A stretch of 64,000 bases of DNA, taken from a virus. Location: IMG/VR virus record IMGVR_UViG_3300032288_004702, positions 92,277-156,276 of that record; one strand, written 5' to 3'. A program made the translations under genes and the position numbers. Positions 21,245-62,058 of the stretch are shown here, one piece after another; the first letter of the stretch is position 1; each line of letters opens with the position of its first letter. The notes beneath the pieces were generated by a model. It was not told the DNA's origin. It ran no database searches and saw only the letters and a program-made list of their open reading frames with translations.

Positions 21245-21271
21245 CTCCCATCAAAGTTTCTTTCTCGGCGT

Positions 21272-27211: not shown

Positions 27212-27218
27212 ATAACTC

Positions 27219-28769: not shown

Positions 28770-28846
28770 TTAATCCTCAAATCTCTTTGACTGCTTGATG
28801 AGTAGATAAAACAACGATAGGGCCACAACGCCAAGTACGGTGCCGC

Positions 28847-29023: not shown

Positions 29024-29213
29024 TTTCTCTCCAAAATGTCTAGTAGTTGGTACTCCCGACACGATAGCCCATGACGGGGAAATTTGCAACAGTTTGTTTT
29101 GCCGGCCCTATGTGTGGTTAGTATGTGCCTAGGACCGGTGGGGCTCGCGCAACCTCTCTCCTTTCGGTACATCCCCAGTGCGAGCCTCGCCGGTTTCTAC
29201 TATTCTGTAGACG

Positions 29214-31130: not shown

Positions 31131-31579
31131 TCGCTCTTTGCTTCTTCGCCTTCGGTGTCGATGCCGGAAATAATTTCCTGAGCAATCAACTTTGCATACT
31201 TGCGACGAAGTCTCCAAATCTTTCGATTCATCTCTACAAGCTCTTTGCTCATTCGCGCTTTGATAATCGCGTCGTCATCGAACACGCCATGAATGTTAAA
31301 CAATGCGTCGTGTAGTTCAGTGTCCTCTATGAGAATGTCAGAAATCCAGCCAGCACGGTTGTCGATGGCCATCATCAACTCGCACATTCCCTCCACACCG
31401 AATTCGTCATAGAGACGGTTTACAACAATGGTGCAAAAGTGTGACCGGTACAAGCGCTTAGCCTTCTGTGATTGCGACATGAACTCAGAGAGCCACACCG
31501 CGAGTTCGCCACTAGAAAAGTCACTAACATCATCTGAGGCGGAGTCAATAAAGTCGTCATCATCGCCGTCTTCTCTCAT
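31127..31579 (-). CDS. Hypothetical protein
   Basis: GGAGG RBS. Confidence 0.6.
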   Translation of the reverse strand: MREDGDDDDFIDSASDDVSDFSSGELAVWLSEFMSQSQKAKRLYRSHFCTIVVNRLYDEFGVEGMCELMMAIDNRAGWISDILIEDTELHDALFNIHGVFDDDAIIKARMSKELVEMNRKIWRLRRKYAKLIAQEIISGIDTEGEEAKSD

Positions 31580-31629
31580 GACGCCTCCCCGTAACTAGAA
31601 CTGTACACAAATGATAACAGCGTCAATCG

Positions 31630-42166: not shown

Positions 42167-43124
42167 TTTTCAATGGCTCCCACCACCAACGATTAGCACG
42201 GTACCAAGCAATTACGTACCATAGGTCGTCTACGATGTTATGCCGTTTTCGCCAACCAAGATTAGTCATCTTGTCGATATTCACTGAATATCTCCTATCG
42301 TGACCTTTTCTGTCTGGAACATACTCAATCCATTCTTCGTGTTCCAGCTCCATGTGCTCCAGAATCATGTGGACGAGTTCGATGTTTGGCGTTTCGTTTC
42401 CAGCGCCGATGTTATAAATTTCCCCAGCAGTCCCATCCGTCAGAACCTTGTACACGCCAGAGCAGTGGTCCTCAACGTGAATCCAATCTCGCTCGTTCAT
42501 TCCATCTCCGTACAGCGGAATCTTTTTCCCTTGGAACACGTTGGTAATGAATAGCGGTATTGCTTTTTCTGGAAATTGGAAAGGTCCGAAGTTGTTCGTG
42601 CAGCGGGTAACAAGCACTGGAAGACCGTGTGTAGTAAAGTGTGCAAGCGCCAGTAGGTCAGAGCCCGCCTTCGACGCAGAGTATGGCGAGCGTGGTTCTA
42701 GTGGGTCTGTTTCTAGCGACGAGCCAACCTCTACAGAACCGTATACCTCGTCAGTACCTATGTGGACAACTCGCTCTACATCTACATGCCGGGCTACATC
42801 CATTACTGCGTCTGTTCCCAGGCAGTTCGTCCTAACAAAAGTGTCAGATAGCGCTATAGAGCGGTCAACGTGGCTTTCTGCGGCAAAGTGAACAACGTAG
42901 TTGGAACCTTTCATTGATTCGACCAGCTTGTCTTTATCGCAAACGTCGCCTTTTATGAATTTAACCCGCTGTGAGTCAATAAAATCCTGCATTGTCTGCA
43001 TGCGGCCGGCGTATGTAAGCGAGTCATAGATAATTACATTGTCTTCAGTATTTTGGAGCACATACCGTACATAATTAGAGCCTATAAAGCCTGCGCCACC
43101 AGTTATGAATTGCGTTTTGCTCAT
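42159..43124 (-). CDS. rmlB: dTDP-glucose 4,6-dehydratase
   Basis: TGGAGFIG, HFAAESHVDRS, TDEVYG, PYSASK. Confidence 0.95.
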   Translation of the reverse strand: MSKTQFITGGAGFIGSNYVRYVLQNTEDNVIIYDSLTYAGRMQTMQDFIDSQRVKFIKGDVCDKDKLVESMKGSNYVVHFAAESHVDRSIALSDTFVRTNCLGTDAVMDVARHVDVERVVHIGTDEVYGSVEVGSSLETDPLEPRSPYSASKAGSDLLALAHFTTHGLPVLVTRCTNNFGPFQFPEKAIPLFITNVFQGKKIPLYGDGMNERDWIHVEDHCSGVYKVLTDGTAGEIYNIGAGNETPNIELVHMILEHMELEHEEWIEYVPDRKGHDRRYSVNIDKMTNLGWRKRHNIVDDLWYVIAWYRANRWWWEPLKNA

Positions 43125-43687
43125 GTTCTTAGCCCATATCGTGGTCTTACTGATTCTGGAATGTCAGAGATGAGGGGGTTTAGTTGGTCTCGTTTTGAGA
43201 CTATTTTTTCGCCGTCGCCCCAGTCTGCTTTTATTGCCGGGTCTGACCATAAAACACCCAGCTCGTCGTTTTGGTTGTAATAGCCGTCCACCATGTAGGT
43301 AATCGTCATGTTTGTTATCGCCAAGAATCCGTGCGCCACGCCGGGCGGGATGAATATCCCTCGATGGTCAAAATCGTAGTAACTGGTATCCCCAACATCG
43401 GTCGTATACGTGTTCCCATATGTTGGTGAGCCAACACGAAGGTCGTGAAGAACAATTCTGCATATACCAAATGGCACATACCAGTAGTCGGCTTGATGCA
43501 GGTGGTAGTGGAGTCCAACAAGAGAACCAGCGGCCCTGTCGCCCCTATTCCCCTGTATCATTTCGCGTCCAAGTGGAAGCCATGAGCGACGATAGGTCTC
43601 TATGAAGTTCCCTCTTTCGTCTGCGTGGACGTCTGGATGAATTATCAATACGTCTGTTATTTCATTACATGCTTCAATGCGTGGCAC
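43121..43687 (-). CDS. rmlC: dTDP-4-dehydrorhamnose 3,5-epimerase
   Basis: DERGNFIE, GLHYH, DLRVGSPT, IPPGVAHGF. Confidence 0.9.
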   Translation of the reverse strand: MPRIEACNEITDVLIIHPDVHADERGNFIETYRRSWLPLGREMIQGNRGDRAAGSLVGLHYHLHQADYWYVPFGICRIVLHDLRVGSPTYGNTYTTDVGDTSYYDFDHRGIFIPPGVAHGFLAITNMTITYMVDGYYNQNDELGVLWSDPAIKADWGDGEKIVSKRDQLNPLISDIPESVRPRYGLRT

Positions 43688-44757
43688 TACTCAACCTCCA
43701 CTACGCTTTGGTCACTGACCATTAATTTCAATGCTGCTGGTTTTTCCGAAGACCGAACAACTCTTGCGCCACGCCCGACGAGCGACTCGCTCATGCGTGG
43801 TATATCTCTAACGATATTATTTCCGAGTAGAACCGAGTTTTGTATTTCGGTATTTTCAACAACGCAGCTGTTCCCTATTGATGTGTATGGTCCAATGAAA
43901 GCGTTACGTATCAAGCAGTTATCGCCAATAACAACAGGGCCAATAATTCGAGAATCATAAATCATCGAATTTCCAATCTGAACTCGCCCATCGGCGGTAA
44001 AAGAGTTGAGTGGTTTTTCGTAAATTTGACGCTCTATCTTGTCAAGGACTAGACGGTTGCATTCCAGTAGCGGGTCTTTTTTCCCAGTATCAATCCACCA
44101 TCCCTCGAGGGTATGGCATGTAACTTCTTTTCCTGAATCAATCAGCCACTGTATTGCGTCGGTTATTTCAAGTTCGCCGCGCTTTGATGCTTTTATGTTT
44201 GAAACAGCCTCGTGAATGTCTTTCGTAAAGTAGTAGACACCGACCATGGCCATGTTTGACTTTGGGTCTGACGGTTTTTCTACGAGACGAACTGGCTTGC
44301 CATTCTCCAGTTCAACTACTCCAAAATTCTCTGGGTTATCAACTTGTTTTACAAGTATTGAAGCAGACGGCTTGTCGCCCAAATAGCCGAACATTTCGTG
44401 AAACTCATGAATGCTTTGCTGGAGCATGTTGTCGCCTAGATACATGACAAAATCATCGTCGGCAAGAAAACTGCGCGAAATTGAGACACAGTGGGCTAAC
44501 CCGAGCGGGTCTGTCTGTTCTATGTACGTTATGCGTGCGCCAAATTTCGAACCGTCACCAACGGCTTTTCGCACCTCATGCCCAGTTGAGCCAATAACGA
44601 TGCCTATATCTGTTATGCCGGCGTCGACCATCGACTCTATGCCGTAGAAAAGAATTGGCTTATTGGCAATTGGGACTAGCTGCTTAGCTCCCGTATATGT
44701 AATTGGGCGAAGTCTTGTCCCGGAGCCACCAGAAAGAATAAGCCCCTTGAGCGTCAT
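43687..44757 (-). CDS. rmlA: Glucose-1-phosphate thymidylyltransferase (long form)
   Basis: LSGGSGTRLRPIT..KQLVPIANKP, YLGDN, RGELEITD, WIDTG. Confidence 0.93.
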   Translation of the reverse strand: MTLKGLILSGGSGTRLRPITYTGAKQLVPIANKPILFYGIESMVDAGITDIGIVIGSTGHEVRKAVGDGSKFGARITYIEQTDPLGLAHCVSISRSFLADDDFVMYLGDNMLQQSIHEFHEMFGYLGDKPSASILVKQVDNPENFGVVELENGKPVRLVEKPSDPKSNMAMVGVYYFTKDIHEAVSNIKASKRGELEITDAIQWLIDSGKEVTCHTLEGWWIDTGKKDPLLECNRLVLDKIERQIYEKPLNSFTADGRVQIGNSMIYDSRIIGPVVIGDNCLIRNAFIGPYTSIGNSCVVENTEIQNSVLLGNNIVRDIPRMSESLVGRGARVVRSSEKPAALKLMVSDQSVVEVE

Positions 44758-45476
44758 GGCGCCTTCATTCCATTTTCAATCCATGCAGAATATGTCACCG
44801 GCATTGCCCCTTTGAATATCTCGGCAACTGCATTCGCGTACTCGCGTATTTCGAGCTGAGCGTTAATGTCCATGCGTAAAGAGAGAAAATTCATGAGAGA
44901 ACGAGCATTCACCGTCCAGTAAAACTGTGTAAACATGGATACAGGGAGAACCATTCTTGCAACTTCTTTTGCTATGCCGGACTCAATCATGTCGCGATAT
45001 AGGCGGTACGAAGCTTCGTTGTTCGAGCTAATAGCAGTTATAGCAAGCTGAACACGGGGGTCCCCGTCTTTCAGCGTTTCAAATGAATATGCTCCCGGTT
45101 TTCCAACCTGAGTGCGGATATCTTCAGCCCGTGGTACATGAAACTCGTCAGGAACTTCTGAGTATCTTGCTGAAAATTCATTAAATGAGCCAATTCTGTG
45201 GCGGAACCATTCGCGTGCAACGAATAGTGGACACTTGACATGAAAGCGCATCGCGTTGTGTTCGAACGGCGTCCCATGCCTCTCTCGCATGAGAAAGTTT
45301 ATGAGGCCCTTGTCTTTCCCAGAAAGTTCATCATGCAGGTCAGACGACTGTTGTGCAAATGAAACTCTTGCGGCGTTGACTACAGACATATCGTCAGCCA
45401 TACAGCCGTCAAGCCTGACAAAACCGCCCACGCCAGGCATTACTTCGATGAGACGAGATGACACTCGTGCCTCCAT
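44754..45476 (-). CDS. thyX: Flavin-dependent thymidylate synthase
   Basis: AARVS, HGTPFEH, REWFRHRIGSFNEFSARY, AQLEIR. Confidence 0.95.
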   Translation of the reverse strand: MEARVSSRLIEVMPGVGGFVRLDGCMADDMSVVNAARVSFAQQSSDLHDELSGKDKGLINFLMRERHGTPFEHNAMRFHVKCPLFVAREWFRHRIGSFNEFSARYSEVPDEFHVPRAEDIRTQVGKPGAYSFETLKDGDPRVQLAITAISSNNEASYRLYRDMIESGIAKEVARMVLPVSMFTQFYWTVNARSLMNFLSLRMDINAQLEIREYANAVAEIFKGAMPVTYSAWIENGMKAP

Positions 45477-48979: not shown

Positions 48980-49055
48980 TGCTGGAGGCGGGATTTGAAC
49001 CCGCGTGTCACCGCTACGGTTTCTACACTTTATAAGAGTGGGCCGATACTCCAGC
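48980..49055 (-). ncRNA. Atypical tRNA-like RNA lacking a D-arm (UAU anticodon)
   Basis: GCTGGAG/CTCCAGC-A acceptor; GCGGG-TTCAAAT-CCCGC T-arm; CACT-CTTATAA-AGTG; extra ACCG-TAG-CGGT arm. Confidence 0.6.
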
Positions 49056-49065
49056 CATCGCTGCA

Positions 49066-49404
49066 TTAGTTGCTGTCACCAGCGATGGCTATTCGTACGT
49101 TCTCAACTAGTCGCGACTTGCTGAAACCGCCAGATGCAGTAACTCTACCTACATACTCCCCGTCGCGTAAAACTATTAATGCCGGGATTGTGAGGATGTC
49201 GTAGCGTCTTGCAAATTCAGGGAACTCCTCGATGTTCAGTTTTGCGAAAGAAACCTCATCGGACATTTCTGACGCCAACTCATCGATGATTGGGGCTATC
49301 TGTTTGCACGGGCCACACCATGGTGCCCAAAAGTCAACTATTACTGGCGTCGCCGAGCTCTTTACGAATTCATCGTATGTGTCTGCGTTCAGTTCTGTTG
49401 TCAT
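49066..49404 (-). CDS. trxA: Thioredoxin
   Basis: VDFWAPWCGPCK. Confidence 0.93.
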   Translation of the reverse strand: MTTELNADTYDEFVKSSATPVIVDFWAPWCGPCKQIAPIIDELASEMSDEVSFAKLNIEEFPEFARRYDILTIPALIVLRDGEYVGRVTASGGFSKSRLVENVRIAIAGDSN

Positions 49405-49408
49405 GACC

Positions 49409-49831
49409 TCATCCTACCTTTTCTACTGGCCAAATATACGGCATATCGGGGTCTTCTGTCCAGCCAAACTGCGAATAATGTGCAAAGTCTTTGCGTAGGA
49501 GGTTTGCACGATGGGATGAGTGAACGCTCTCTTCCCCCCACCAAAATGGCATGTCGTCAAAGTCGGCTTCTCCGTATGAAAGCATCTTTTCCCTGCAGCT
49601 GTCCCTATATCCACGGGCTATCCACACGTCGCAGATAGTCACCCCATAGGCAATTAGGCCGCCAATGTTGTCTGCCCACATTTTTGCAGCCGGATGATTT
49701 TTCCACCCAAGAGAAACATCGAGATTGCACCTAATTAGCTGAAGCGTCTCGACGCGCTGTTTCCCAAGTCTTGCCCTATCAAGAACCTGTCCGCATTCAA
49801 GAATGTTCGTTGATGGAACGAATGTTTGCAT
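49409..49831 (-). CDS. MSMEG_6728-like / pyrimidine-dimer glycosylase-like protein
   Basis: MQTFVP..LDRARLGKQRVETLQL..HPAAKMW..HSSHRANLLRKD..YIWP. Confidence 0.75.
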   Translation of the reverse strand: MQTFVPSTNILECGQVLDRARLGKQRVETLQLIRCNLDVSLGWKNHPAAKMWADNIGGLIAYGVTICDVWIARGYRDSCREKMLSYGEADFDDMPFWWGEESVHSSHRANLLRKDFAHYSQFGWTEDPDMPYIWPVEKVG

Positions 49832-49873
49832 TTCCCCTCCTAGTAATAATAAGTAGTGACTAGAACTTTCATT

Positions 49874-50323
49874 CTAGTCATAGTTTGGATTAATTAGCAA
49901 ATCCTTTACATCATCAGCCATGAGCAGGAATCCGCGAGCTGGATTGTCCGCACCGCCGAGCGATATTTTTGAGACCTCATTAAATTTGTCTCTGTTTAAA
50001 CGAAGGTAACGCTTAAGTCTGGCGACTTCGATGACAACAAAGGCGCTTCCGGTCGAGAATACATAGACCCACCATTTCGCCGTTGTTACGTTTATTCCAC
50101 TAGGGACCCAGATGCGATTCCCGTCTGAATCGGTACTTCCACGGGGATTCTGGTTCGTTTCAACAACCATTCTCCCGTTTCGATACCTATCTGTTTTTAC
50201 TTCAAATGCCCCGTCAGACAAGTCGTCAAGAAACATTTCTATATCTTTTTCGCTTTTCTGACCGAAGGCTAAATCGGCCTTAAAATCAAAAGAGCGACTT
50301 GGGATATCAAATGCCGAAGTCAT
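49874..50323 (-). CDS. PD-(D/E)xK-like nuclease-fold phage protein
   Basis: DFKADLAFG, FEVKTD, SGINVTTAKWW. Confidence 0.55.
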   Translation of the reverse strand: MTSAFDIPSRSFDFKADLAFGQKSEKDIEMFLDDLSDGAFEVKTDRYRNGRMVVETNQNPRGSTDSDGNRIWVPSGINVTTAKWWVYVFSTGSAFVVIEVARLKRYLRLNRDKFNEVSKISLGGADNPARGFLLMADDVKDLLINPNYD

Positions 50324-50552
50324 CTGGAATGTCTCTAGAAATGAGCGCCTCAATCCCGGACTGCACATCCTGGTTTTCTTTTATGACAAGACCTAGAACA
50401 TTGAGGATATCGTCAGCAGTATCTTGGGTTGCCAGGCGGCGCTCGCGCTCTTCCTCTGGGGAATTATCAGAATTATCTAAAAATGAATAAATTGTGTTAG
50501 CAATTAAATCACTAAGTGTTAGGCGTATTTCGGCACTGCTCTGTGTAGACAT
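50307..50552 (-). CDS. Hypothetical acidic protein, probably leaderless
   Basis: TGGTACTGT extended -10 just upstream of MSTQSS. Confidence 0.5.
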   Translation of the reverse strand: MSTQSSAEIRLTLSDLIANTIYSFLDNSDNSPEEERERRLATQDTADDILNVLGLVIKENQDVQSGIEALISRDIPDDFGI

Positions 50553-50625
50553 GCTTGACACAGTACCACCCTGGGTGTAGGGTGTAAATGCCCTAGGGCA
50601 TCGATTAGAGAAAAGAGATAAACCA

Positions 50626-51111
50626 GTGAATTTGTCACCAGTAACGATTATCGGGAATCTGACAGCAGACCCGGAACTCACCTTCACCACCTCGGGACAG
50701 GCGAAGCTCAGCTTCTCCGTCGCGAATACCCACGTCTGGTATGACGCCTCGAATGAGAAGCAGGAAAAGACCAGCTACTTCAATGTCACGGCATGGCGTT
50801 ACCTCGCAGAGAACTCGGCTCGCACCCTCGAAAAGGGAATCGGAGTCGTCGTTTATGGGCGGCTCGAGCAGCGCAGCTACGAGGACAAGGAAGGCAACAA
50901 GCGTTCAATCGTGGAAGTCGTTGCGGAAGAGATTGCCATTTCCACCAAGTCGCTAGAGACCATTGAGCGTCGCCAGCGCAGCGAAAATCAGGATTCGTCC
51001 GGACAGCGTTCTGGCGCCTCTTCGCAGGCTCGCCGTAGCCGCCCCAGCACTGCCAAGGTCCCAGCAGGGGCAGGGCTGATGGACGACGTCGAGGCAGACG
51101 AGCCTTTCTGA
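50626..51111 (+). CDS. ssb: Single-stranded DNA-binding protein
   Basis: TIIGNLTADPEL, GRLEQRSYE, acidic DEPF tail. Confidence 0.93.
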   Translation: MNLSPVTIIGNLTADPELTFTTSGQAKLSFSVANTHVWYDASNEKQEKTSYFNVTAWRYLAENSARTLEKGIGVVVYGRLEQRSYEDKEGNKRSIVEVVAEEIAISTKSLETIERRQRSENQDSSGQRSGASSQARRSRPSTAKVPAGAGLMDDVEADEPF

Positions 51112-51332
51112 AATATTCGGATTAAGTCGTTAAATAGGCCCAGAGAGGCCTAAACGACAGCATTTTGGGGCCCGGTCATGGCGGAAAAACCGTCAGGCCG
51201 GGCCTTTTGCTTGCCAAAATGTTTCCAATAAATTGCTCCAAAAAAATCCCGAGAAAGTGTTGTCAAACTTAAAACAGTTGCTTATGATGTGCTCATCCCA
51301 ATACACCTACTTAGACACAGGGAGATACAGCA

Positions 51333-51581
51333 ATGTCGGAATACAGCAAGCTCAAGGAAAAGGGAATTAACCGCGGCAGACCGCGCCACAGCCCTGAACA
51401 AAAAGCTGCATCACAGTTGCGCAACTCGTTGCGCCAGGAGGCGCGCCGTCGTGCTCACCTCGTCCTCAAGGCGCGCCATGCAGACGAGTTCAATGAAATC
51501 TACGAAAACGAGATGAATGACCTCATCAAGGATGCAACATCATCGGAAAAGGCTAAGCCGAAGAGGACTCGCAAGTCCTAG
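51333..51581 (+). CDS. Small basic protein with an RGRPR (AT-hook-like) motif
   Basis: NRGRPRH; GGGAG RBS. Confidence 0.55.
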   Translation: MSEYSKLKEKGINRGRPRHSPEQKAASQLRNSLRQEARRRAHLVLKARHADEFNEIYENEMNDLIKDATSSEKAKPKRTRKS

Positions 51582-51719
51582 TCGTCATCTTCGTTGTCAG
51601 CCTGGGGTGATTCCCCTGGGCGCACGAAATCCTTTAAGAACTTCTTGGCCCATTCCCGGCGCTCTTCTTCTTTCATGTTGAAGAAGTCGTCGGGGATGGG
51701 TCTTACTCGCGGGAGTCGA

Positions 51720-51911
51720 CTATTCATCATTCTCTGCTTCCGAATCGTCAAAAACCTTTTCGCCAGTTTTGAACTTCATGTTTCTGCGCATGTGCTCAAA
51801 GGTGGCAATTAGGTCCATCGCCCTATCTTCACCGCGCGTATTCCGCTTTGCATCAATTGCAGCGATGTCGGCGAGTAGCTTTATGTCTCCATCAAATCCT
51901 GGAAATGTCAT
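51720..51911 (-). CDS. Hypothetical protein
   Basis: AAGGA RBS, packed. Confidence 0.5.
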   Translation of the reverse strand: MTFPGFDGDIKLLADIAAIDAKRNTRGEDRAMDLIATFEHMRRNMKFKTGEKVFDDSEAENDE

Positions 51912-51913
51912 TT

Positions 51914-52099
51914 TTAAAAATCCTTATCTTTATGACGCCTGACATTTCTTTTCAGAGCCTTGCGTCTTGAGTTTCCGTACTCTACCTCGAGCCAGTCGTC
52001 AAAGTCTTCATACGCTCCTGGACTTTTCTGAATATATCTTTCGTACTCTGCCAGTAGCTCAAGGTACTCATCGTCATCTTCGTCAAACCGTGATGGCAT
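51914..52099 (-). CDS. Hypothetical protein
   Basis: Packed ORF. Confidence 0.5.
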   Translation of the reverse strand: MPSRFDEDDDEYLELLAEYERYIQKSPGAYEDFDDWLEVEYGNSRRKALKRNVRRHKDKDF

Positions 52100-52114
52100 A
52101 ACACTAACGTCTTT

Positions 52115-52612
52115 CTATCCTTTTCTGACCTGTCTGCCGGCAGACTCAGCAGCCTCCGTGTTGGAGACAAACTGTCTACCCTTCCTGCTGCCCAGTATTT
52201 TTTTCCTGTTAGTTGCAGCCCTTTGGGCCGGCGTAAGCTTTGTCCACGCTTTTGCTGGCAGATACCGCCGTGTTCCGCCCTTGCGGATTGCTGGTTTGCC
52301 ATCGGAAGTCGTCCACTTCTCGCGAGTCCACTTCTTTAGCGAACGTTGTGACGCCTTTGGCTTCCCCCTGTAGCCGCCACCAGCCTTGCGGTATTCAAGG
52401 GCTAATAGTTGAGCTTTTCTTGCACTCCATTGGCCAGGTTTACCGCCGCGCGAACCCGCCATGATGCGATTTTTAATTCTCTCGCGCAGCTCTGGCTTCG
52501 TATAAGACATTTTTGCTGTCTTCTCAAGCGTTCCTGGGGCGCCTTCGACAAACTTAATGATTGAATCTTCCACCCATGCCGGGGGCTCTGTGGAGTTTTT
52601 GTGTTCTCTCAT
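52115..52612 (-). CDS. Basic protein, DUF5872-like
   Basis: GQWSARKAQL..YRKAGGGY..SLKKWTREKW..RYLPAKAW. Confidence 0.7.
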   Translation of the reverse strand: MREHKNSTEPPAWVEDSIIKFVEGAPGTLEKTAKMSYTKPELRERIKNRIMAGSRGGKPGQWSARKAQLLALEYRKAGGGYRGKPKASQRSLKKWTREKWTTSDGKPAIRKGGTRRYLPAKAWTKLTPAQRAATNRKKILGSRKGRQFVSNTEAAESAGRQVRKG

Positions 52613-52863
52613 GGCTTATTTTTCTTTTTGACTCTTTCGCGAGCTCTATTAATTATCCATGCTGCCTCAAGCCCCATGCCGTCAACCCATGGATGAGATT
52701 CAGCAAAACGCACTATCTGCTCGTCTCCGTCACTCGCCTGGTGCTCTACGCCAGCACGTTCCATAAGCTGATAAATATCCTGAACCCCTGGTATATCCAA
52801 TTGTCTAAATTTTGTAAAATCACAGTTTTCCTGCGAATTGTCAACAATTATTGGCTCATTCAT
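52609..52863 (-). CDS. Hypothetical protein
   Basis: Directly downstream of the giant ORF. Confidence 0.55.
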   Translation of the reverse strand: MNEPIIVDNSQENCDFTKFRQLDIPGVQDIYQLMERAGVEHQASDGDEQIVRFAESHPWVDGMGLEAAWIINRARERVKKKNKP

Positions 52864-52872
52864 TTTTGCACC

Positions 52873-55800
52873 TTACGCCATCGCGGCGACAACTTTGTCG
52901 CCCATTTGTACTCCAACATTGTTTAAGTCATTCGCAAATCCGTACAGATTTGCCATTGCTGCCGCCAAGCCACGACCTTTATGGTCTTTGGATATTTTTG
53001 GCCTGCCAACATTGCGTCCACCGCTAAACGACATCGTGGCAGATGGCTTAAGATTCTTTGACTCAAACATGCTTTTTAGAACATCTGATGGGCTTGACAT
53101 TTTGTCAAAAAGACCCTGTATTTTCCTGTCCCTAACCTTTATGTATTGGTCATGCGTAAAAACTTTTACTAAACCATTAGCGCCCGAAATTACCCAGTAA
53201 TCGCGGCTTTCGCCGGTTGCAAAATCTGTGTTTCTTACTCTGCGAGCTGCAGTTATGGGCCCGTTGGTAAATTTTCTAGTATTACCAATTCGTTTTAGAT
53301 GTGATGAGCCTGTATTGAACTTATTAGACTTAAGTTCGCTAATTGCAGCACTAACTTTTCTTACAGATTCATCATCGAGCGTAAATCCTCCGGTTCCTCC
53401 AGAGTCAATAAATGCAGGGCTTGGGTCTTCGCCACGTCCTAGTAAATCCCATAGCCTATTTAGGTCTGTTACGGCTATCTGGTCTTCCTTGAGACCCATG
53501 TCTGCAGCCCTTGAAAGGTTGTCTTCATTGTTAGGATAAACATCGACAACATCTAGGTAAACAGTTCCATCCGAAACCCATCCGCCTATTGTTGTTTTGT
53601 CAGCTCCAGGTTGTGGATTTGCAAAAGTTTTTGGTCCGTGGAAATCCATCCATGCCAAGAATGTCTCTACTAGTTCATCAGACGGATTTCCTTCAGCGTC
53701 AAAATCCGCTACGGCATCGACTTTCATGCCATGCCTATTTCTTGCAATGGCGATTCCTTCTTTTACGTCATCCATCTTGTCGACCTCGACGGTAAAGCCA
53801 CCCATAAACCCCTTGGTTAGCGTGGCTTTTACTGCGGCAACTCTTTCCGGGTCGCGATTGAAGGTGACCCTCATGTCGCTGGCTTTCATGCGTGCTTCAA
53901 TAAGATTGTATTTAATTACCTTTCCAGAAGAAAGACGATTTGATTTACTCGACTTGAATCGTCTGGCTCGCGATTTACTACGGCCAATAATGTCTTGGGC
54001 TAGAGCCAGCTCGATATCTTCTTTTGGCGCATCTTGAATTTTCTTTCTGCCAGATGACAGCTTGTTATTGATGGAGATTTTCTCCATCTCGTCAACCGCC
54101 TCCCGGAAGTTTCCTGCATAAACTAGCGAAACTCGTCTACCCTTGAGTTCACCCTCTCTAATGCCGAACAGCTCGGCCGGCGCATTTACGAAGCCGGGGT
54201 CGCCGGAATCATCTCGTCTGGAGTGCCCAAGCCTTCTCGCTGCGTATATCTGGAAATGCAAATGCCTTACAGCAAGCTTTTCCAGGTCTGATAGCGGAGA
54301 GTCTGGATGGTCGGCCATTGACATCATCGCAATGTCATTTGCCCATTCTCCATGCCTATCAAATGCACGGCCTGTACCAAGGTGGCCGAACAGGTCGTGG
54401 AGGGCCTGAAGAGCCTTGCCGGATAGTCCCATATTAAAGTAGAGAGGGTTCTCTATTCCACCAATATAAGACTCAAGGAAAGAACCTAAATCTTGACCCT
54501 TTGTTCCCATAAATAGGGAATCGTCTCCCAGTGCTGCGCCGGCCTTCGCTGCTAACCCCATCATAAATTCACTGTGTTTACGCCACGCTTCGCCATATAT
54601 GCCGGGCAGCGCATCGCGCGATAGGGCGCCATTCCCTATTGCGTCTGAGGGCAATACGTAACCCTTTGGCGCTATCGCTTCTAGGAGTGGGAATTTAGCT
54701 TTTGCTGCGTCGTCAGTATATTTTAGAACTGATTCACCATTGACTGAAACCTGTTTTGCAACCACGTTGCCAAGAACGTCTACCCATTCCTTATTTTCGT
54801 CGTCAAAACGTAATGAATTAGCCACTGCCTTATCTAGAACTGGGAGCAGCGAACCGCGTGATGGAAGTTCTATTTTTCTCCAGTCAATCCTCTTTGGCAT
54901 TTGTTCTGCTATTTGTGGGATTGGGTCAGCTGATACGAACGGTATCCCGTCTGTGGCAATGCTTATGGATATTGAGTCTAACAATTTTCGCCCTGTATCA
55001 CTGAACACGCTGTGTGGCGTCACTTCTTGGAGCCGTTTTTTATTCAAAACCCTAAGAAGGTTTGGCAGTACAGATTCAATAGTTGACCGCTGATAGTCAT
55101 CGATTGTTATTCCAAGCTTATTTTCTAGTATTGCGGCAATTCTTTTTCCGAATGCAATCTTTGGTATGTTTCCTTCTGATACTCCGGTCGTTTCAGCTAC
55201 GCTGAGCTCGCCTTCCAGCGGTAGGTCTTCTGTGACCGGGTATAGTCTGGCACCAGACGAAAGTCGTGATGAAGAATTCTGCGTATCGGCACTATTGAAA
55301 TCGTCAAATCCAAGATTACGTAATTTTCTATATGCAACATTTGTAACCTTGTCCCTGCCTGTAGCCATATCAAGCGTTTGTTGCACTATTTGACGAGCTT
55401 CTTCCGTCGCCTCGCCGTCTGATGGCATTTCTAAGAGCAAATTGGCCGGAGGAGTAATCATCCTCGTGTCTGTTAGACGACCGAGTAGAACAACCTCATC
55501 CTCTCCTAGACATCCAAAACCGGTTAATGGGTTTGAAAATATTTGCTCCACGGGGACATATGCCTTCATGAGGATATTTGCGTCAAATACTGCCTGAGCT
55601 TCCTCTAGCGCGTCTATGCCGGGTTTTTTTGAAGCGGCAAGCGACGTTGAAAAAGCTTGAGCCATGGTGCTGCTCGTTGTCCATGATGAAAGCGGGCGCA
55701 TGGCTACCTGTCTTTCAGCAATTTCACCCCTTTCGACTGCCATTTTTGGCGTGGCCTTCATGCCTCTCCATACGCCGATATGTGTAATTCCTTTTGACTT

Positions 55801-58800
55801 GTAGTAATGCTGCGTTGCGTCGTATATTGCCTTTACTACAGAACGAATTATTTCTGACTGTTTTTCACTAAGTTCTGGCGCATCGTCAAAAGCAAGGTCT
55901 CCAAGTTCTGAGCGCAGTTCAACCGGAACGGCAGAATCATAGAGAATATCGTCGCGCTTTCCGCGCACTCCTCCGTACCATCCGACGGCGTCATCTAGCC
56001 CAAACATTTTTCGCGCCTCGTGCTGTATCGCCAGGGCTACTGGGTTTGAGTTGTTGGAAGAAATAGCCCATGTATGGATGATGTCGGAAACTATTGCCAA
56101 TCGCGCTTCTCTAATCCCATCAGGTGTGTTTATATCGAAAAATGAAACACCACTCTTCTGTTCGTAACGAGCTTTGTAATCTTCAGCATTCCCGGATATG
56201 AAGCGCAACCTATTTATCAAGAAGTTTTTGAGTAAGTCTTTGGTTTCAGGTGAATCGACATTTGTTTCGTTTATGTCTACTATTCCTGCAGCGGCTATTT
56301 TGTTTAAAAAGTCATCTTTTGCACCAAATGTTACGTAGAGGCGGTCATAGGCTCTATGTTGTTCGTCTGTACGCTCTAGCTCTGGAACAATTTTCCCGTC
56401 CCTAATCAAAAGTTTAAAATCTTTTGCGAATTGGTCGCTTATAGAGCCAGTTGTAGAAATTAAAGCCATGCCGGGCTTTCCGGTGCGCGGGTCAATTTCG
56501 CCAACGGGGGAGAAAATTATGGCTAAACCCTCTCCATCTTTCAACGGTCGACCCGTCATTGGGTTTGTTCTGGTCTTGCCATTTGTGCCGCGTATTTCAG
56601 AAAGTAGGTCGCCAAACATTGTCCTAAGCTGGATACCGAAACTGACTAGTTCTCTCTTAATTTCGTCTCCCCCAAGACGGGAACCCAGGTATGGGGTAAG
56701 TACAGACTTCTCGTCTCCGAATGCAACTTTTGTTAATTCATCCCACTTGTCGCCAAACAAGTCATCGTATGAGTATTTTTCCAGCTCGTCTATTATTTCA
56801 TCGAACCAGAATCTCTTTTGGATTAGTTTGTCGTGCTTCTCCACGGACACCAATGAGCCTGTTGACCTATCGATGGCAAATCTTCCAGCGGCACTCTTTT
56901 CTTCTTCCGTTGCGTTTTCCGGCAGATTATCAATGGCGTCAAACAGAGCTTTCAGTGCTTTGAAATTCGGAGCTGAACGGAAAAATCTGCTTTGAGCCAA
57001 TGAATCCATTCCGCTTGCTGCCACTGACTCCTGAGAGAACGATTCAATAAATTCACGCGGGTCAATCTGGGTAGTTTCTGCGATGTTTGACGCAATCATT
57101 CGTTTCGCCGAGGAGCTAGCTTTTCTGTCCTCCTCTGATGAAAACATACTCACGCCAAATCCAGTTACGTCAAGCGGAGATAGGCCCCCGATTACTGGGT
57201 CAAGAACCATTGCCCTCACGTCATGTTCTAGTTCCGCAGTCAAATCGTCTTCGGAGGGGATAGGGAGAGCGGCGCGCAGACGCTCAGATGGCTCTACGGA
57301 AAAGGAGACTAGTCCCTCTGGTCTTTTAGGTGCTTCAAATGTGTATGGTTCCGGAGTTTGTTCAGGCTGTTCGGCGGCCTGGTCTGCCCCTATGAGCTGC
57401 CTTAGTGCCCTGGCCATGCGCCCCCTGCGCTTTTCCCTCTCTGGCCTTTGCTTCGCGCCAGAGGAAAGCCTTATTATCGGTCTTCCGTCAGCAGTTTTCT
57501 CCCACGGCAAGTCATCTGGGTCTACTCCGGCAAGTGTATATATGTCTTCGCGCAGCTTTTTGCTTAATGCAATTTTGGGCATGTCTTTATTCGGGTGCAT
57601 TATCGCAACAAAGGCTTCTGCTATGGCTTCTCTTTTGTTTACATTGCCATATGACGTTGCAGTCAAAGCCTTGTCGGGGTGAGCTGAAAACATCTCAGTG
57701 GCATCGCGGCCGGTGAGGTCTACAAATTCTGTATAAATACCTATCGCTTCTTCATCTGTTTCCGGGTTCGCGTACTCTTCTGCGACATCTAATGCAGCAA
57801 GGTATCTCGGGTCATCCATCTTCCCGCTTCCGTAATAGGAGCGAGCCTTGCCGTTTTTCCCATTTGTCTCTGTGTCCCATATTGCCCTGTAATGGAGCCA
57901 GTGACCATATTCATGTATGACAGTGCCATATAGTGACCTGTCGATATGCGCATCGCGCGGTTCTGGAACTCTGTTTGGAGTTAGCTCTAGTGGATAAACA
58001 CCCTTTTCATCGCTTGTTAGCGACTCCCTGTCAATAAGGGCGCGCGGGGTAAGACCAACGAGCCCAAATTCCCTGGATGCTAGTCCGCTGACAAAGGGAG
58101 TTTTGTCAACGCCCCGTTGCTTCCGAAGAAGCTCCATTCTCTCTTTGACGTCAGGGCTATTTTCATACCCATCTATTGCTTCACGCGTGAATGCAACAAT
58201 CATCGGAGAGCCGAAATTTTGGAACATCCATAGCATTTGCGGTGATGATTCGAGCATCCCACGAACAAGGTCCTGAGTTGCCTTTACCGCTTCCGGAGAG
58301 TAATCGGGAGCGAGATTATTCTTATCCTTACTTAACTCGTCATAATATTTTTTTAAGAACTTTCGCCATTTCCTATTTGTGCGCCAGTTATCTCCGGCTA
58401 TGTCGTCTGCCCACATTTCAAAGTGTTGTTCTGGCGTAGTTGGTACAACAACACGCGATATTTCGTCTGGGGTCATTCCAGACAGCCATGTTGAAGAATT
58501 TTTGCGCACTTCTTTTCCAGAAGCGTCCGGCTGACCGTAGCCCTTGACATTGCGTCTACCGGGCTGAACTGGCTCCCGCCCTTGTGTTGGCTTCATGGCG
58601 ATAGTCGGCCTCTCCCCACCAGAGGCAAGCCTGTCATAAACACGAACTTCGTAGCCGTTTCGCTTTTCCTTCACCCAATCATTAAACCCTGACTGGCTCA
58701 TATCGTTCGTGTCAGAAAAATCTGTGTCCTCTGGAAAGCTGTTTAGTACTTCAACCTCTAGCTGCCTAGATTCAGCCCACGACTCCAGCTTTCTTAAGAA

Positions 58801-61800
58801 ATTGTCTATCGCGTCGATACTTTCGTTTTTTTCAAATTCTAAGTTGAAACTAACCTGACCATCATTGTCCTGGTTTACGTTCGACGCTTTGATTTTTTCC
58901 TGGTTTAGTAAGGTATTTATTTTTCTTACGGTTGGCGGGCCCGACCATTTGCCGGAAGAAAGCTTGTCTATGTACTCTTTCTTAAGGGCCCTGAACTCTT
59001 CAACTTCAGCATCGAACTGGTCAAGCTTTTCTTTCCATATTGCGTCACGCTTTTCTTTGCTTAGAACGTCTTTTGACCAATCGTTTTTTATTGCCCCGTC
59101 AATTGTCTTTAAAAGGACCTCATTGAGGACTTCTGCGTCCGCGTCTGCGTTATGGTGCTTATCTCCGAGGTCAACATCCAGGTATTCCGTGATTGCCTTA
59201 AGGCTGCTGGACGGAACGTTTTGGTTCTTGCGCTTGTCGAATATGTGCGGTCCATCTGGGGAATCTTCTGACCATTTTGGAAGAGCAAGAGATGCAATCG
59301 CCCTAGTATCCACCCACCCAGACGGTCTCCAGTCGGTTCCCATTGATTCAAGTGCGGTATCCAGAACCTGCTTGTCGAATACGGCATTTTGGGCCCCAAA
59401 CAAAGCATCTGGGCCAGCAAAGTCCATCAACATTTGATGTGCCTGCTCTATAGATGGCTTGTCGTTAAAAAACTCATCAGTGAGAAGTTCGCCGTTTGGT
59501 CCCTTGAGGTTATCCCTAGACCAACCCTCCCATTCGTCCTTCTTCATCCCTGGGTCTACGTAAACATTAAAACGGTCTACTATTTCTCCGTTTTTTACCT
59601 TTACTGCACCGATTTGTACTGGAGCGCCATTACCGGACGGCTCATTGAAGTCGTCAAAAACAAGCCCTGTTGTTTCATAATCAAGAAATACAAGTTCCGC
59701 GTCATAGTATTTCTCTTTGAACTCTTCCCACGAGTCAGCCTGAAACAACTCGTCTGCCTTGCCGAGAAATGGCCCATAGGTAGGTTGACGTGGATACTGC
59801 GGTGGTTTTCCGCTGCTCAGCGTAGTATCGGAATCAATATTGTCTAGCGCTACTTCTTTCGCCCCAGAACTGAGTTTGCCCTGACCGGAAAGTTTGACGT
59901 CCCAGATTTCACGTCCATCATCCGTCTGCGTCTTCTTAACCAGCTTGTATGTTGCACCAGCGGGCAGTAATACTTCGTGTTCATTTATTCCGAAATATCT
60001 TTCGTCGAGAGGCTTCCGGGTATCAAAGTTTTCCAGGTTATAGTCATTTGGGCGTTTAGATATGTATCTGCCACGTGTGTTCTTTGTTGTCAATAAGCGA
60101 AGAACTATTGGCCTTTTGTCTCCCATTCCAGAGTATTGGCCTGGGGCCATAACTGTAAAGCTCTGGAAGCCCCTATCGCCAAATGTATCACCCTCTTTAA
60201 GTGATGCAATTTCTGGCGTATTCCCGATTGACCTATACAACGTTATGCCGGCGGTTATTCTGTTGTCCATTAGGAGCCGCTGCGTAGACGCATATTCGTC
60301 CAGGTTGGGGGACCGCGGGTCATCAAATGTGTAACCCAGCCTTAGTGAGTCATTAATTACTGACCCAAAATCTTTATACTCAGTTATTTTTTCAAGAGCT
60401 CCATCGTATTTAGGCAAAGACGCATCTATATCGTTTTTTTCAAACACTCTAGATATGAGTCTGTATAGTGATTCTGGAGTGAGCAATGCTCCCTCTTCCC
60501 ACGTGTCATAGTCGCCGTCGTACAGCTCGGATACGTGGACTCCACGAGAGCTACGCTTAGTTGAGCCGGACGATAGGCGTCCAGTGGATGCCCCAACAAG
60601 CTGTTTTAGGGGTCGTGTATAGAAAAATTGGGACTTGGCGTTAGAGAACACCTTATATGCGCCGGGGAAATCAACTAGCTCTTCCGCCGTTGCTTCGGTC
60701 TCAAAAAGTCCGGTGCCTTCATTTTTTACATACAGAGAAGATATTCTCTTTCTGTCTTCATCCGAAAAAAGTTCTGGACTGGATTTAATTGCTTCGTCGA
60801 TTATTCCTATGAACTTTTGTTTATCAGTTTCTCCGCCCCATGAGAATCCGTTTTTGGGCCAATGAACTGCCCCAATCGAAGAGACATCAGAAGAGCCATA
60901 TGTAATAATTGAACTTACGCCAAGTTCGTTATATATTTGCTCATTTCTCGCATTAAAAGCAGAACCCAACCCCTGCCCCTGTGCATTTTTGTTTATATAG
61001 AACGAATCGTGAGACATTACTTTGATGTCTTTGTCATCGTTGGTTATATGAAGAAGCCCCCTATATGCGGTTGCAAGGGCTGGCATATCGTATTCACTGG
61101 ACGCAAATCGCTGCTTATCGCTATCATCAAGCGCGCTGAGCACATCGTCTTTGTATTGAGGCAGCGGTGTAATTCTTAATTGAAGCGATACTTCTGCAAG
61201 CAAATCCCCTTCGTCCAGGAGTTTGTCAAACACCTGCATCTCATCCTGCTCGGCAACGTCCTTATCCGTGATTTTGTCTATTTTAAAAACTGGGCTATAT
61301 TTGGATGGGGTACGACCCGGGTGTACTTCTATCAATACCCTATTGCCGATGTTGAGCTTCTTCCCGTCCGCTGTTGTAAGAATGATGTCTCTGTCTAGCT
61401 CCATTTCACCGCGGAAGGCATCGGCCAAAAGATTAAGTAGCTTTTGTTTTTTCGAGGACCTGTCATCGTCTTCTTGTAGAAGCTTTAAGGGAAGTGGTTC
61501 CGGCATCCCCGGCGGACGTGGCGGACGCGGTGCATTGCCATCAATTATGTAAGTGTCTTCTGTTTTAAACTCATCTGAATCTAAATCATCCAAAAATTTA
61601 GATATTATTTCTTTGATTTTCTCATCAACTGGCGGCTGTGAGTCGACTATCTCCTGATACTTTTTTCCGGAAGATAGCCTGTTGCCCGTGTCGGGATACT
61701 CCGTTCCCCTGTTTGAGTAAATCTTATTACCGCTTGATTTTGGCTTATCGTTATCGCCACCGATTCCGACCCAGACCGGTTTAGTCGTACCCTCGTCAGC

Positions 61801-62058
61801 CCAGCCATCGCCATCGATGTCTCTTCTAGACCCGGTCGGGGTGCGCGTTCCCGGCTTTCCGCCTGTTGGCAGGTCAAATCCGCCACGCCCCCGTCTGTCT
61901 CTGTTTCTGCGTCCATCGCCTATCGTGGGCCTATCTATAGCCCTAGAGCCCAAATAGCGCCCCAGTCTTCCTAGGGTCGATTTTTCCTCTTGTTCGGCAC
62001 GGGCGGCACGGCGCGACTCATCGAAGGGAATAGGGAACTCTTTGTTATCTGCAGACAT
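52873..62058 (-). CDS. 3061-aa polyvalent multi-effector protein (GNAT, ART, DEDDh exonuclease, zincin, second ART, HDxxGH domain) with ten [R/K]LSSG linkers
   Basis: AQGQGLG; LYRS..FQSFT..EHEVLLP; LDYETTG..NAVFD..HNADAD; HEYGH..EAIAE; VWRG..LSSWT..EDEVV; HDLFGH. Confidence 0.85.
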   Translation of the reverse strand: MSADNKEFPIPFDESRRAARAEQEEKSTLGRLGRYLGSRAIDRPTIGDGRRNRDRRGRGGFDLPTGGKPGTRTPTGSRRDIDGDGWADEGTTKPVWVGIGGDNDKPKSSGNKIYSNRGTEYPDTGNRLSSGKKYQEIVDSQPPVDEKIKEIISKFLDDLDSDEFKTEDTYIIDGNAPRPPRPPGMPEPLPLKLLQEDDDRSSKKQKLLNLLADAFRGEMELDRDIILTTADGKKLNIGNRVLIEVHPGRTPSKYSPVFKIDKITDKDVAEQDEMQVFDKLLDEGDLLAEVSLQLRITPLPQYKDDVLSALDDSDKQRFASSEYDMPALATAYRGLLHITNDDKDIKVMSHDSFYINKNAQGQGLGSAFNARNEQIYNELGVSSIITYGSSDVSSIGAVHWPKNGFSWGGETDKQKFIGIIDEAIKSSPELFSDEDRKRISSLYVKNEGTGLFETEATAEELVDFPGAYKVFSNAKSQFFYTRPLKQLVGASTGRLSSGSTKRSSRGVHVSELYDGDYDTWEEGALLTPESLYRLISRVFEKNDIDASLPKYDGALEKITEYKDFGSVINDSLRLGYTFDDPRSPNLDEYASTQRLLMDNRITAGITLYRSIGNTPEIASLKEGDTFGDRGFQSFTVMAPGQYSGMGDKRPIVLRLLTTKNTRGRYISKRPNDYNLENFDTRKPLDERYFGINEHEVLLPAGATYKLVKKTQTDDGREIWDVKLSGQGKLSSGAKEVALDNIDSDTTLSSGKPPQYPRQPTYGPFLGKADELFQADSWEEFKEKYYDAELVFLDYETTGLVFDDFNEPSGNGAPVQIGAVKVKNGEIVDRFNVYVDPGMKKDEWEGWSRDNLKGPNGELLTDEFFNDKPSIEQAHQMLMDFAGPDALFGAQNAVFDKQVLDTALESMGTDWRPSGWVDTRAIASLALPKWSEDSPDGPHIFDKRKNQNVPSSSLKAITEYLDVDLGDKHHNADADAEVLNEVLLKTIDGAIKNDWSKDVLSKEKRDAIWKEKLDQFDAEVEEFRALKKEYIDKLSSGKWSGPPTVRKINTLLNQEKIKASNVNQDNDGQVSFNLEFEKNESIDAIDNFLRKLESWAESRQLEVEVLNSFPEDTDFSDTNDMSQSGFNDWVKEKRNGYEVRVYDRLASGGERPTIAMKPTQGREPVQPGRRNVKGYGQPDASGKEVRKNSSTWLSGMTPDEISRVVVPTTPEQHFEMWADDIAGDNWRTNRKWRKFLKKYYDELSKDKNNLAPDYSPEAVKATQDLVRGMLESSPQMLWMFQNFGSPMIVAFTREAIDGYENSPDVKERMELLRKQRGVDKTPFVSGLASREFGLVGLTPRALIDRESLTSDEKGVYPLELTPNRVPEPRDAHIDRSLYGTVIHEYGHWLHYRAIWDTETNGKNGKARSYYGSGKMDDPRYLAALDVAEEYANPETDEEAIGIYTEFVDLTGRDATEMFSAHPDKALTATSYGNVNKREAIAEAFVAIMHPNKDMPKIALSKKLREDIYTLAGVDPDDLPWEKTADGRPIIRLSSGAKQRPEREKRRGRMARALRQLIGADQAAEQPEQTPEPYTFEAPKRPEGLVSFSVEPSERLRAALPIPSEDDLTAELEHDVRAMVLDPVIGGLSPLDVTGFGVSMFSSEEDRKASSSAKRMIASNIAETTQIDPREFIESFSQESVAASGMDSLAQSRFFRSAPNFKALKALFDAIDNLPENATEEEKSAAGRFAIDRSTGSLVSVEKHDKLIQKRFWFDEIIDELEKYSYDDLFGDKWDELTKVAFGDEKSVLTPYLGSRLGGDEIKRELVSFGIQLRTMFGDLLSEIRGTNGKTRTNPMTGRPLKDGEGLAIIFSPVGEIDPRTGKPGMALISTTGSISDQFAKDFKLLIRDGKIVPELERTDEQHRAYDRLYVTFGAKDDFLNKIAAAGIVDINETNVDSPETKDLLKNFLINRLRFISGNAEDYKARYEQKSGVSFFDINTPDGIREARLAIVSDIIHTWAISSNNSNPVALAIQHEARKMFGLDDAVGWYGGVRGKRDDILYDSAVPVELRSELGDLAFDDAPELSEKQSEIIRSVVKAIYDATQHYYKSKGITHIGVWRGMKATPKMAVERGEIAERQVAMRPLSSWTTSSTMAQAFSTSLAASKKPGIDALEEAQAVFDANILMKAYVPVEQIFSNPLTGFGCLGEDEVVLLGRLTDTRMITPPANLLLEMPSDGEATEEARQIVQQTLDMATGRDKVTNVAYRKLRNLGFDDFNSADTQNSSSRLSSGARLYPVTEDLPLEGELSVAETTGVSEGNIPKIAFGKRIAAILENKLGITIDDYQRSTIESVLPNLLRVLNKKRLQEVTPHSVFSDTGRKLLDSISISIATDGIPFVSADPIPQIAEQMPKRIDWRKIELPSRGSLLPVLDKAVANSLRFDDENKEWVDVLGNVVAKQVSVNGESVLKYTDDAAKAKFPLLEAIAPKGYVLPSDAIGNGALSRDALPGIYGEAWRKHSEFMMGLAAKAGAALGDDSLFMGTKGQDLGSFLESYIGGIENPLYFNMGLSGKALQALHDLFGHLGTGRAFDRHGEWANDIAMMSMADHPDSPLSDLEKLAVRHLHFQIYAARRLGHSRRDDSGDPGFVNAPAELFGIREGELKGRRVSLVYAGNFREAVDEMEKISINNKLSSGRKKIQDAPKEDIELALAQDIIGRSKSRARRFKSSKSNRLSSGKVIKYNLIEARMKASDMRVTFNRDPERVAAVKATLTKGFMGGFTVEVDKMDDVKEGIAIARNRHGMKVDAVADFDAEGNPSDELVETFLAWMDFHGPKTFANPQPGADKTTIGGWVSDGTVYLDVVDVYPNNEDNLSRAADMGLKEDQIAVTDLNRLWDLLGRGEDPSPAFIDSGGTGGFTLDDESVRKVSAAISELKSNKFNTGSSHLKRIGNTRKFTNGPITAARRVRNTDFATGESRDYWVISGANGLVKVFTHDQYIKVRDRKIQGLFDKMSSPSDVLKSMFESKNLKPSATMSFSGGRNVGRPKISKDHKGRGLAAAMANLYGFANDLNNVGVQMGDKVVAAMA

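Follow-up and report, generated by a model that had tools for sequence, protein, structure and literature searches.

Giant proteins that string together unrelated conflict enzymes have been described from phages and conjugative elements as polyvalent proteins (Iyer, Burroughs, Anand, de Souza and Aravind, 2017; PMC5512222). They are predicted to be delivered together with DNA and to have their domains released by embedded peptidases or zincins, and their zincin metallopeptidase (MPTase) was unified with lethal factor by HHpred (PMC5512222). A second precedent is provided by virion cargo of other phages: the internal proteins and Alt of T4 carry a capsid-targeting sequence that is cut by gp21 at L/I-x-E, and in phiKZ and SPN3US it is the prohead protease that processes the ejection proteins, at A-x-E (PMC10052503, PMC9026906). 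Here we analyze P0001, a gene for a 3061-amino-acid (aa) protein of an uncultured contractile-tailed phage, located in a 64,000-nucleotide stretch of DNA (positions 92,277 to 156,276 of IMG/VR virus record IMGVR_UViG_3300032288_004702; hereafter, the window). The modules of this protein are separated by ten copies of a short peptide, [R/K/T]L[S/A]SG, which is kept in all homologs, lies at module boundaries and coincides with the points at which modules have been exchanged, as is predicted for a processing signal.

LSSG is the most frequent tetrapeptide of P0001, with nine copies against a mean of 0.14 and a maximum of 3 in 2000 shuffles (Poisson P ~4e-14). An earlier reading of the letters alone (the sequence-only reading) had placed ten motif starts between aa 127 and 2708, and both these and their DNA numbers, which give the low coordinate of each 15-nucleotide site, are exact. 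The ten sites all differ in their codons, as that reading had claimed, and Ser is drawn from both TCN and AGY codons, which argues that the peptide rather than the DNA is under selection. A DNA-level recombination signal at the junctions was considered and rejected because the codons differ at every site. The sequence-only reading described the motif as mostly followed by basic residues; K or R directly follows the Gly at five of the ten sites in P0001. Among 180 non-redundant sites of the family, the residue after Gly is R in 26%, K in 25% and A in 19%; the resulting logo reads S-x-[R/K/S]-L-[S/A]-S-G-[R/K/A]. In the flanks, R, K, S, P and Q are over-represented, whereas L, M, W, F, H and C are under-represented. 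The layout of the gene, in window coordinates, is as follows.

52873..62058, minus strand: whole gene P0001, predicted polyvalent polyprotein, 3061 aa (translation of the open reading frame, ORF)
61681..62058, minus strand: leader module A, aa 1-126, with an Arg/Gly tract, a DIDGDGW loop and EEK↓S at aa 23-26 (arrow, candidate cut)
61666..61680, minus strand: site 1, RLSSG, aa 127-131
60580..61665, minus strand: module C, aa 132-493, family of n=21 (343-383 aa); GNAT label unconfirmed
60565..60579, minus strand: site 2, RLSSG, aa 494-498
59878..60564, minus strand: module O, aa 499-727, ADP-ribosyltransferase (Pfam ADPrib_exo_Tox, E 1.7e-7)
59809..59877, minus strand: sites 3 and 4, KLSSG at aa 728-732 and TLSSG at aa 746-750, with a 13-aa spacer; predicted local distance difference test score (pLDDT) <50 throughout
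58966..59808, minus strand: module D, aa 751-1031, DEDDh 3'-5' exonuclease (Pfam RNase_T; pLDDT >85; n=18 family members, 283-293 aa)
58951..58965, minus strand: site 5, KLSSG, aa 1032-1036, at a dip in pLDDT
58633..58950, minus strand: small module, aa 1037-1142, absent from the other 30 proteins and without assigned function; alpha/beta model of moderate quality
58618..58632, minus strand: site 6, RLASG, aa 1143-1147
57472..58617, minus strand: module B, aa 1148-1529, zincin metallopeptidase, with HEYGH at aa 1382-1386 (window 57901-57915)
57457..57471, minus strand: site 7, RLSSG, aa 1530-1534
55267..57456, minus strand: module E, aa 1535-2264, family of n=18, usually directly after B; label of a second ADP-ribosyltransferase unconfirmed
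55252..55266, minus strand: site 8, RLSSG, aa 2265-2269
54064..55251, minus strand: module G, aa 2270-2665, with invariant HDLFGHLGTGRxFDRHGEW; position varies among homologs
53923..54063, minus strand: sites 9 and 10, KLSSG at aa 2666-2670 and RLSSG at aa 2708-2712, with a basic 37-aa spacer
52876..53922, minus strand: module F, aa 2713-3061, C-terminal or adjoining the C-terminus in 13 homologs

The enzymatic labels proposed for these modules from the letters fared unevenly. The ADP-ribosyltransferase (ART) with an R-S-E signature at aa 499-732 is confirmed by a Pfam match to ADPrib_exo_Tox (PF03496) in aa 498-731, which scores 31.2 bits over aa 556-711 (curated cut-off, 23.4). The DEDDh exonuclease matches RNase_T (E 1.3e-10) and is confidently modeled; the HExxH module has a zincin fold with an invariant HExxH; and the Gly/Arg-rich leader with DIDGDG corresponds to module A, which is always first in the homologs. 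The HDxxGH motif is likewise real, being invariant in 11 homologs, and its module matches no family. Three labels were not confirmed: a GNAT domain at aa 132-498, for which Pfam searches (P0001 and five homologous modules) and PDB profile searches returned nothing; a second ART closing the segment aa 1535-2269; and a C-terminal GNAT-like module, the last two having no match in Pfam searches of P0001 and its homologs. More generally, modules C, E, G and F have no Pfam match in P0001 or in homologous modules, PDB-sequence profile searches with modules B, G and C gave nothing significant, and a query of the ESM Atlas with module G gave no usable match. The idea of a polyvalent effector fits. Such proteins combine two to fifteen unrelated effector or conflict domains, are encoded by phages, plasmids or conjugative elements, and have a zincin-like MPTase as a hub; P0001 is phage-encoded and combines an ART, an RNase_T exonuclease and the zincin with at least five further self-contained modules. 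The published polyvalent proteins string together the same kinds of conflict enzymes (ART, nuclease, zincin), but the paper that describes them names no junction signal and does not contain the word 'linker' (PMC5512222), whereas P0001 has a four-residue delimiter at every junction.

Comparison with homologs shows that the delimiter is both retained and used as a point of exchange. A search with the leader retrieved 30 further giant proteins of 1856-4703 aa, the motif is present in 30/30, and the 31 leader-bearing proteins hold 2-14 sites each. Across this set, SSG is preceded by L in 255 cases, by F in 47 and by no other residue in more than 9, F taking the place of L in some distant members. 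When the 31 proteins were cut at the motif and the pieces clustered at >=70% mutual coverage, discrete module families with narrow length ranges were obtained, which occur in differing orders and combinations: A (108-143 aa; the leader, always first), D (283-293 aa; exonuclease), B (364-427 aa; zincin), C (343-383 aa), E (650-751 aa) and G (335-426 aa), all three without an assigned function, F (about 350 aa; at or next to the C-terminus) and H (about 135 aa; always last). Which of the middle modules occur, in how many copies and in what order varies among the phages; module G, for example, follows E in P0001, precedes B in P0002 and comes directly after the leader in P0027. The internal ends of BLAST high-scoring segment pairs between P0001 and its homologs lie a median of 8 aa from the nearest site, compared with 95 aa for random positions, and 74% of them, compared with 13%, fall within 20 aa of a site. 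Breakpoint distances and motif-cut families agree that modules were exchanged at the motif sites, the kind of domain shuffling that the sequence-only reading had proposed to check for.

Around the exonuclease and zincin modules, structure prediction places the motif outside folded domains. The AlphaFold2 (AF2) model of the zincin module has a pLDDT of 86.7 and a predicted template modeling score (pTM) of 0.88, and only its first 16 and last 5 residues, which adjoin sites, score below 50. A model covering aa 480-1160 gives values above 85 for the exonuclease (aa 750-1034), and pLDDT falls below 50 at aa 727-748 (sites 3 and 4), at aa 1035-1040 (site 5) and from aa 1144 on (site 6). The expectation of disordered linkers between self-contained domains therefore holds around the exonuclease and zincin modules. 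The ART module was modeled poorly (pLDDT 30-60) because its alignment is shallow, and the fold around site 2 was accordingly not judged from the ART side. Neither motifs lying within folds nor loss of the motif in homologs was found. Sites are often paired within 13-40 aa, as at sites 3/4 and 9/10. The disordered N-terminal tail of the zincin, comprising the first 16 residues of module B directly after LSSG, contains invariant G1, R4, P5 and M9 in the pattern G-R-x-R-P-x-I-x-M, and this tail may belong to an extended recognition site or serve as a pro-segment. We also considered whether the code is general to polyvalent proteins. A distant giant, L009, with 24% identity to module B, lacks a repeated delimiter, and the code is therefore lineage-specific.

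The distribution of the motif over the genome extends the pattern beyond P0001. The source record has 156,276 bp with direct terminal repeats, the window being its right-hand 64 kb, and encodes TerL, a portal, an HK97-fold capsid protein with an N-terminal delta domain, sheath, tube and a tail chaperone. L[SA]SG occurs 23 times in a naive ORF set of 49,537 residues: ten times in P0001, five times in a prohead-protease polyprotein, five times in a 2401-aa protein of the head region, twice in a 1595-aa ORF at the position of the tape measure and once in an 84-aa ORF. The four giant proteins, which make up 20% of the coding residues, therefore hold 22 of the 23 copies (binomial P ~1e-14), and the lone copy in the 84-aa ORF is within the chance level for the remaining proteome. 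Genome-wide, G is the next residue after 20 of the 37 LSS. In a second genome, whose capsid protein is 88% identical, the four orthologs carry 11, 5, 4 and 3 sites, again 23, and the three scattered L[SA]SG found elsewhere equal the chance expectation. The possibility raised by the sequence-only reading, that other large proteins of this genome and of relatives would contain the motif, was thereby realized in three further giants and their orthologs. These loci, together with the capsid gene, which is discussed below, are located as follows.

G000 23190-32126, minus strand: 2978-aa prohead-protease polyprotein
G000 14259-21464, minus strand: 2401-aa head-region protein
G000 48998-53785 (locus L012 8998-13785), plus strand: tape-measure-position ORF, 1595 aa
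G000 8232-9587, minus strand, outside the window (locus L010): capsid protein

The 2978-aa protein consists, in order, of an N-terminal S78 prohead protease (Pfam E 2e-11), ArdC-N, an MPTase-PolyVal zincin and a UvrD-type helicase; assemblin-like peptidases are C-terminal in the published polyvalent set (PMC5512222), whereas S78 is N-terminal here. The 2401-aa protein has a HELAH motif at aa 603 and its five junction sites all in the C-terminal half, and it matches no Pfam or PHROG family. The tape measure was identified by gene order alone (sheath-tube-chaperone). Its homologs have [LF][SA]SG near aa 36 in 106/120 and a mid-protein site at about aa 560-650 in 115/120, compared with a chance expectation of 0.31 per protein, while the flanks of these sites drift. 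Cleavage at these sites, if that is what the code specifies, would leave tape-measure fragments of ~35, 545 and 1000 aa. In one sub-lineage (P0022 and P0024-P0026, on other contigs), many junctions read FSSG rather than LSSG, and the tape measure from a 154,559-bp contig, the same size as that of P0025, also has FASG and FSSG. A shift from L to F that is common to polyproteins and tape measure suggests that one reader serves all substrates.

The leader suggests a link between P0001 and the head. A shared peptide in module A, LGRLGRYLGSRAIDRPTIG (aa 24-50; window 61909-61989, minus strand), is a 27-aa core with the pattern LGRxxGSRxIDRPxIGxGR, common to the P0001 leader and aa 545-571 of the protease polyprotein. 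A relative shows a longer match of 90 aa, leader aa 24-110 being 60% identical to aa 538-626 of that phage's S78-protease polyprotein, and the leader-like segment there ends in the first LSSG of the protease polyprotein. On the simplest reading the shared peptide would be a common docking or possibly capsid-targeting element, and from its homology to a segment of the prohead-protease polyprotein we infer that P0001 may be packaged in the virion. Directly before the shared peptide stands a second short element, E-x-K-[S/A], which reads EEK↓S in P0001 and EWK↓A in the protease polyprotein and is kept in 25/27 leaders.

The same element occurs in the capsid protein, which, like the portal and an acidic scaffold-like protein of 527 aa, lacks L[SA]SG. 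In the capsid protein, E-x-K-[S/A] occurs five times, always in aa 3-115 within the delta domain, where 0.2 would be expected (P ~2e-6), and the positions are conserved in 120 homologs. A variable Ala-rich stretch of the capsid protein is followed by LSSR at aa 95-98, with L-S/T-S at aa 95-97 in 120/120 homologs. We also considered RLGSF (capsid aa 156-160) as a possible maturation site but discarded it for lack of conservation. The HK97 capsid protein is cut between Lys and Ser, and since the sites in the capsid protein and the leaders fit such a cut, E-x-K↓S/A is a better candidate than LSSG for the code of the S78 capsid protease.

Which peptidase might read the junction peptide? Among the enzymatic modules, only module B occurs in every homolog: its hidden Markov model matches 30/30, with HExxH intact in each, and HExxH, Y324, E331 and E335 are invariant. 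In structure, module B is closest to the catalytic domain of lethal factor (Z 8.7 over 178 aa, root-mean-square deviation 4.6), PPEP-3 (Z 6.8) and PPEP-2 (Z 6.2), and nearly all further matches are zincins. The M34 zincins, which include lethal factor and PPEP-1/-2/-3, are sequence-specific endopeptidases that cut defined linear motifs in disordered segments, and they combine HExxH with a downstream Glu ligand and a catalytic Tyr on a zincin fold; module B has HExxH with an invariant downstream Tyr and Glu. Module B differs from them in having no significant sequence similarity and an extra N-terminal half, and its putative substrate, [LF]-[SA]-S-G, is unlike that of lethal factor or PPEP. It is also distinct from the ArdC-type MPTase: hhalign aligned only the HExxH helix, and module B has no Pfam match and does not belong to the Pfam MPTase-PolyVal family.

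We consider it probable that P0001 is a polyvalent cargo polyprotein whose junction peptide is an endopeptidase site, with the zincin as its most likely reader. On this reading P0001 consists of a conserved leader, interchangeable enzyme cassettes and a fixed C-terminal module, each junction being a disordered linker with [R/K]-[L/F]-[S/A]-S-G-[R/K/A]. This peptide would serve as a sequence-specific endopeptidase site common to all proteins expected to enter the cell, its substrates being the tape measure and three giant polyproteins that lie in the head region or bear the leader. The zincin in the polyprotein would cut in cis and in trans, probably late, either inside the capsid or after ejection, and the S78 capsid protease would use the separate code E-x-K↓S/A. 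A mid-protein cut of the tape measure would be harmful before tail assembly, and for this reason cutting may well be late and possibly follow ejection.

A more detailed version of this scheme, with two codes in a large clade of uncultured phages, is possible, although we hold it only tentatively. S78 would act at E-x-K↓S/A, both to trim the delta domain of the capsid protein and to unmask the cargo leaders, and the zincin would read [L/F]-[S/A]-S-G after ejection, in three polyproteins and the tape measure, to release in the new host a phage-specific, rapidly reshuffled enzyme cocktail, the junction also acting as a standard connector through which phages exchange cassettes.

Several observations weigh against the zincin-based reading. 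The resemblance of module B to M34 peptidases is modest (PDB profile E 0.25; Foldseek E 0.025), and there are two further HExxH candidates, the ArdC-type MPTase of the protease polyprotein and the HELAH of the 2401-aa protein. An S78 domain is fused to a polyprotein that has five junction sites, and the near-invariant L-S/T-S-R of the capsid protein (aa 95-98) adjoins an E-I-K-S. P0001 is remote from the head module, lying among replication-type genes, downstream of helicase/primase-like and helix-turn-helix genes on the same strand, and scans for promoters and terminators around it, which bear on the timing of expression, found nothing above chance. Since cutting the tape measure in its middle before tail assembly would be harmful, the timing has to be assumed. 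The phage is uncultured, and searches of cultured phages with megablast and tblastn turned up nothing close; identity of the portal to actinophage portals does not exceed 45%, over half its length. The reading as a protease site is well supported by the comparative evidence; cleavage itself is inferred, as are the identity of the protease, its timing, packaging and ejection.

Among the alternatives, the one that survives best, though we think it unlikely, is that the S78 (HK97-type) prohead protease reads the junction peptide, with all cuts made inside the maturing procapsid, as is the case in T4 and phiKZ-like phages. The fusion of S78 to a site-bearing polyprotein would fit this, as would the leader that this polyprotein shares with P0001 and the L-S/T-S kept in every capsid homolog. 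An analogy can also be drawn with T4 (L/I-x-E) and assemblin sites, in which P3 is hydrophobic. The phiKZ-like phages use A-x-E (PMC10052503). If S78 were the reader, its substrates would be expected to include the capsid protein, but the delta domain lacks the same recognition peptide and has the five E-x-K-[S/A] instead, the element that also precedes the shared peptide in nearly all leaders. Nor are the junction sites confined to the procapsid interior. The tape measure is built outside the head, has no E-x-K-[S/A] and keeps its two or three junction sites over 120 homologs, and this counts against S78 because a capsid-confined protease should not meet the tape measure. With a capsid protein that lacks LSSG but is rich in the other element, and a tape measure that keeps LSSG, the evidence leans to the zincin over S78 as the reader.

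It is somewhat less probable again that a host protease, or another phage zincin such as the ArdC-type MPTase or the HELAH domain, cuts the chains after entry and that module B is an effector against host proteins. Four proteins share the code and only three carry any HExxH, the view that MPTases may be effectors is allowed by Iyer et al. (PMC5512222), and the drift of the L/F preference between lineages would also fit different hosts. The universal presence of module B is, however, explained more easily by a housekeeping role than by a swappable effector. Least probable is that the peptide is an uncut linker element (a site of Ser modification, a chaperone- or portal-docking element or a recombination-tolerant junction) in giants that act whole like the N4 virion RNA polymerase: although that polymerase and ArdC/TraC1 are delivered full-length (PMC5512222) and the first tape-measure site (aa 36) lies in helical-looking sequence, four residues that stay invariant over ~180 non-redundant linkers, while the flanks are free, point to a specific reader, the paired sites leave tiny spacers that make sense as excised peptides, and the modules are independent and free in position.

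The zincin-based scheme resembles the T4 and phiKZ/SPN3US systems in that cargo would have an N-terminal targeting sequence or propeptide and that one protease with a short consensus would act on many virion proteins, some propeptides in those phages being cut several times. There, cargo is encoded in separate genes, processing is mostly propeptide removal, the capsid protein carries the same code and the enzyme is the prohead protease; here, one chain holds many enzymes, the code is missing from the capsid protein but present in the tape measure, and a zincin is the stronger candidate. Single products split at short repeated peptides by an embedded protease are also found in eukaryotic RNA viruses, as at picornavirus 3C sites. 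These viral polyproteins show no homology to the present system, which differs in belonging to a dsDNA phage, in peptidase class and in having swappable accessory modules rather than a fixed replication set. The claim that a repeated cleavage code of this kind had not been described holds insofar as neither the junction motif nor a junction code in phage polyproteins was found in the searched literature; the cutting of polyvalent proteins by embedded zincins has, however, already been published as a prediction (PMC5512222). Relative to that literature, what is new is a single four-residue delimiter at all junctions, its sharing among giants and the tape measure, module exchange exactly at the delimiter, and its separation from a likely capsid-maturation code.

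Other features of the window were noted. GTAGATAA occurs in 115 copies on both strands between positions 1197 and 39066, compared with 0.9 expected, and has no copies in 39.1-64 kb, the zone holding the polyprotein gene. The G+C content of this zone is 0.52-0.61, compared with about 0.47-0.50 elsewhere. At 41321-45476 on the minus strand, two nucleotide-sugar epimerase-like genes and a thymidylate-synthase-like gene form one run, which hints at DNA or nucleotide modification functions.

How, or whether, polyvalent proteins are taken apart had stayed a matter of prediction. In P0001 and its relatives, the candidate cut points are written as a four-residue code, which makes the prediction testable, and a short, specific pair of protease and site would, if real, be a useful tool. 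The code also gives exact boundaries for about ten enzyme modules without assigned function, each of which could be expressed on its own. The capsid protein has >2800 relatives in metagenomes, many of them on 150-165-kb contigs, and in a clade of this size the rule may serve to annotate thousands of giant ORFs that are labeled only 'DNA polymerase III epsilon-like'. The swapping of cassettes at a universal connector explains how such proteins evolve.

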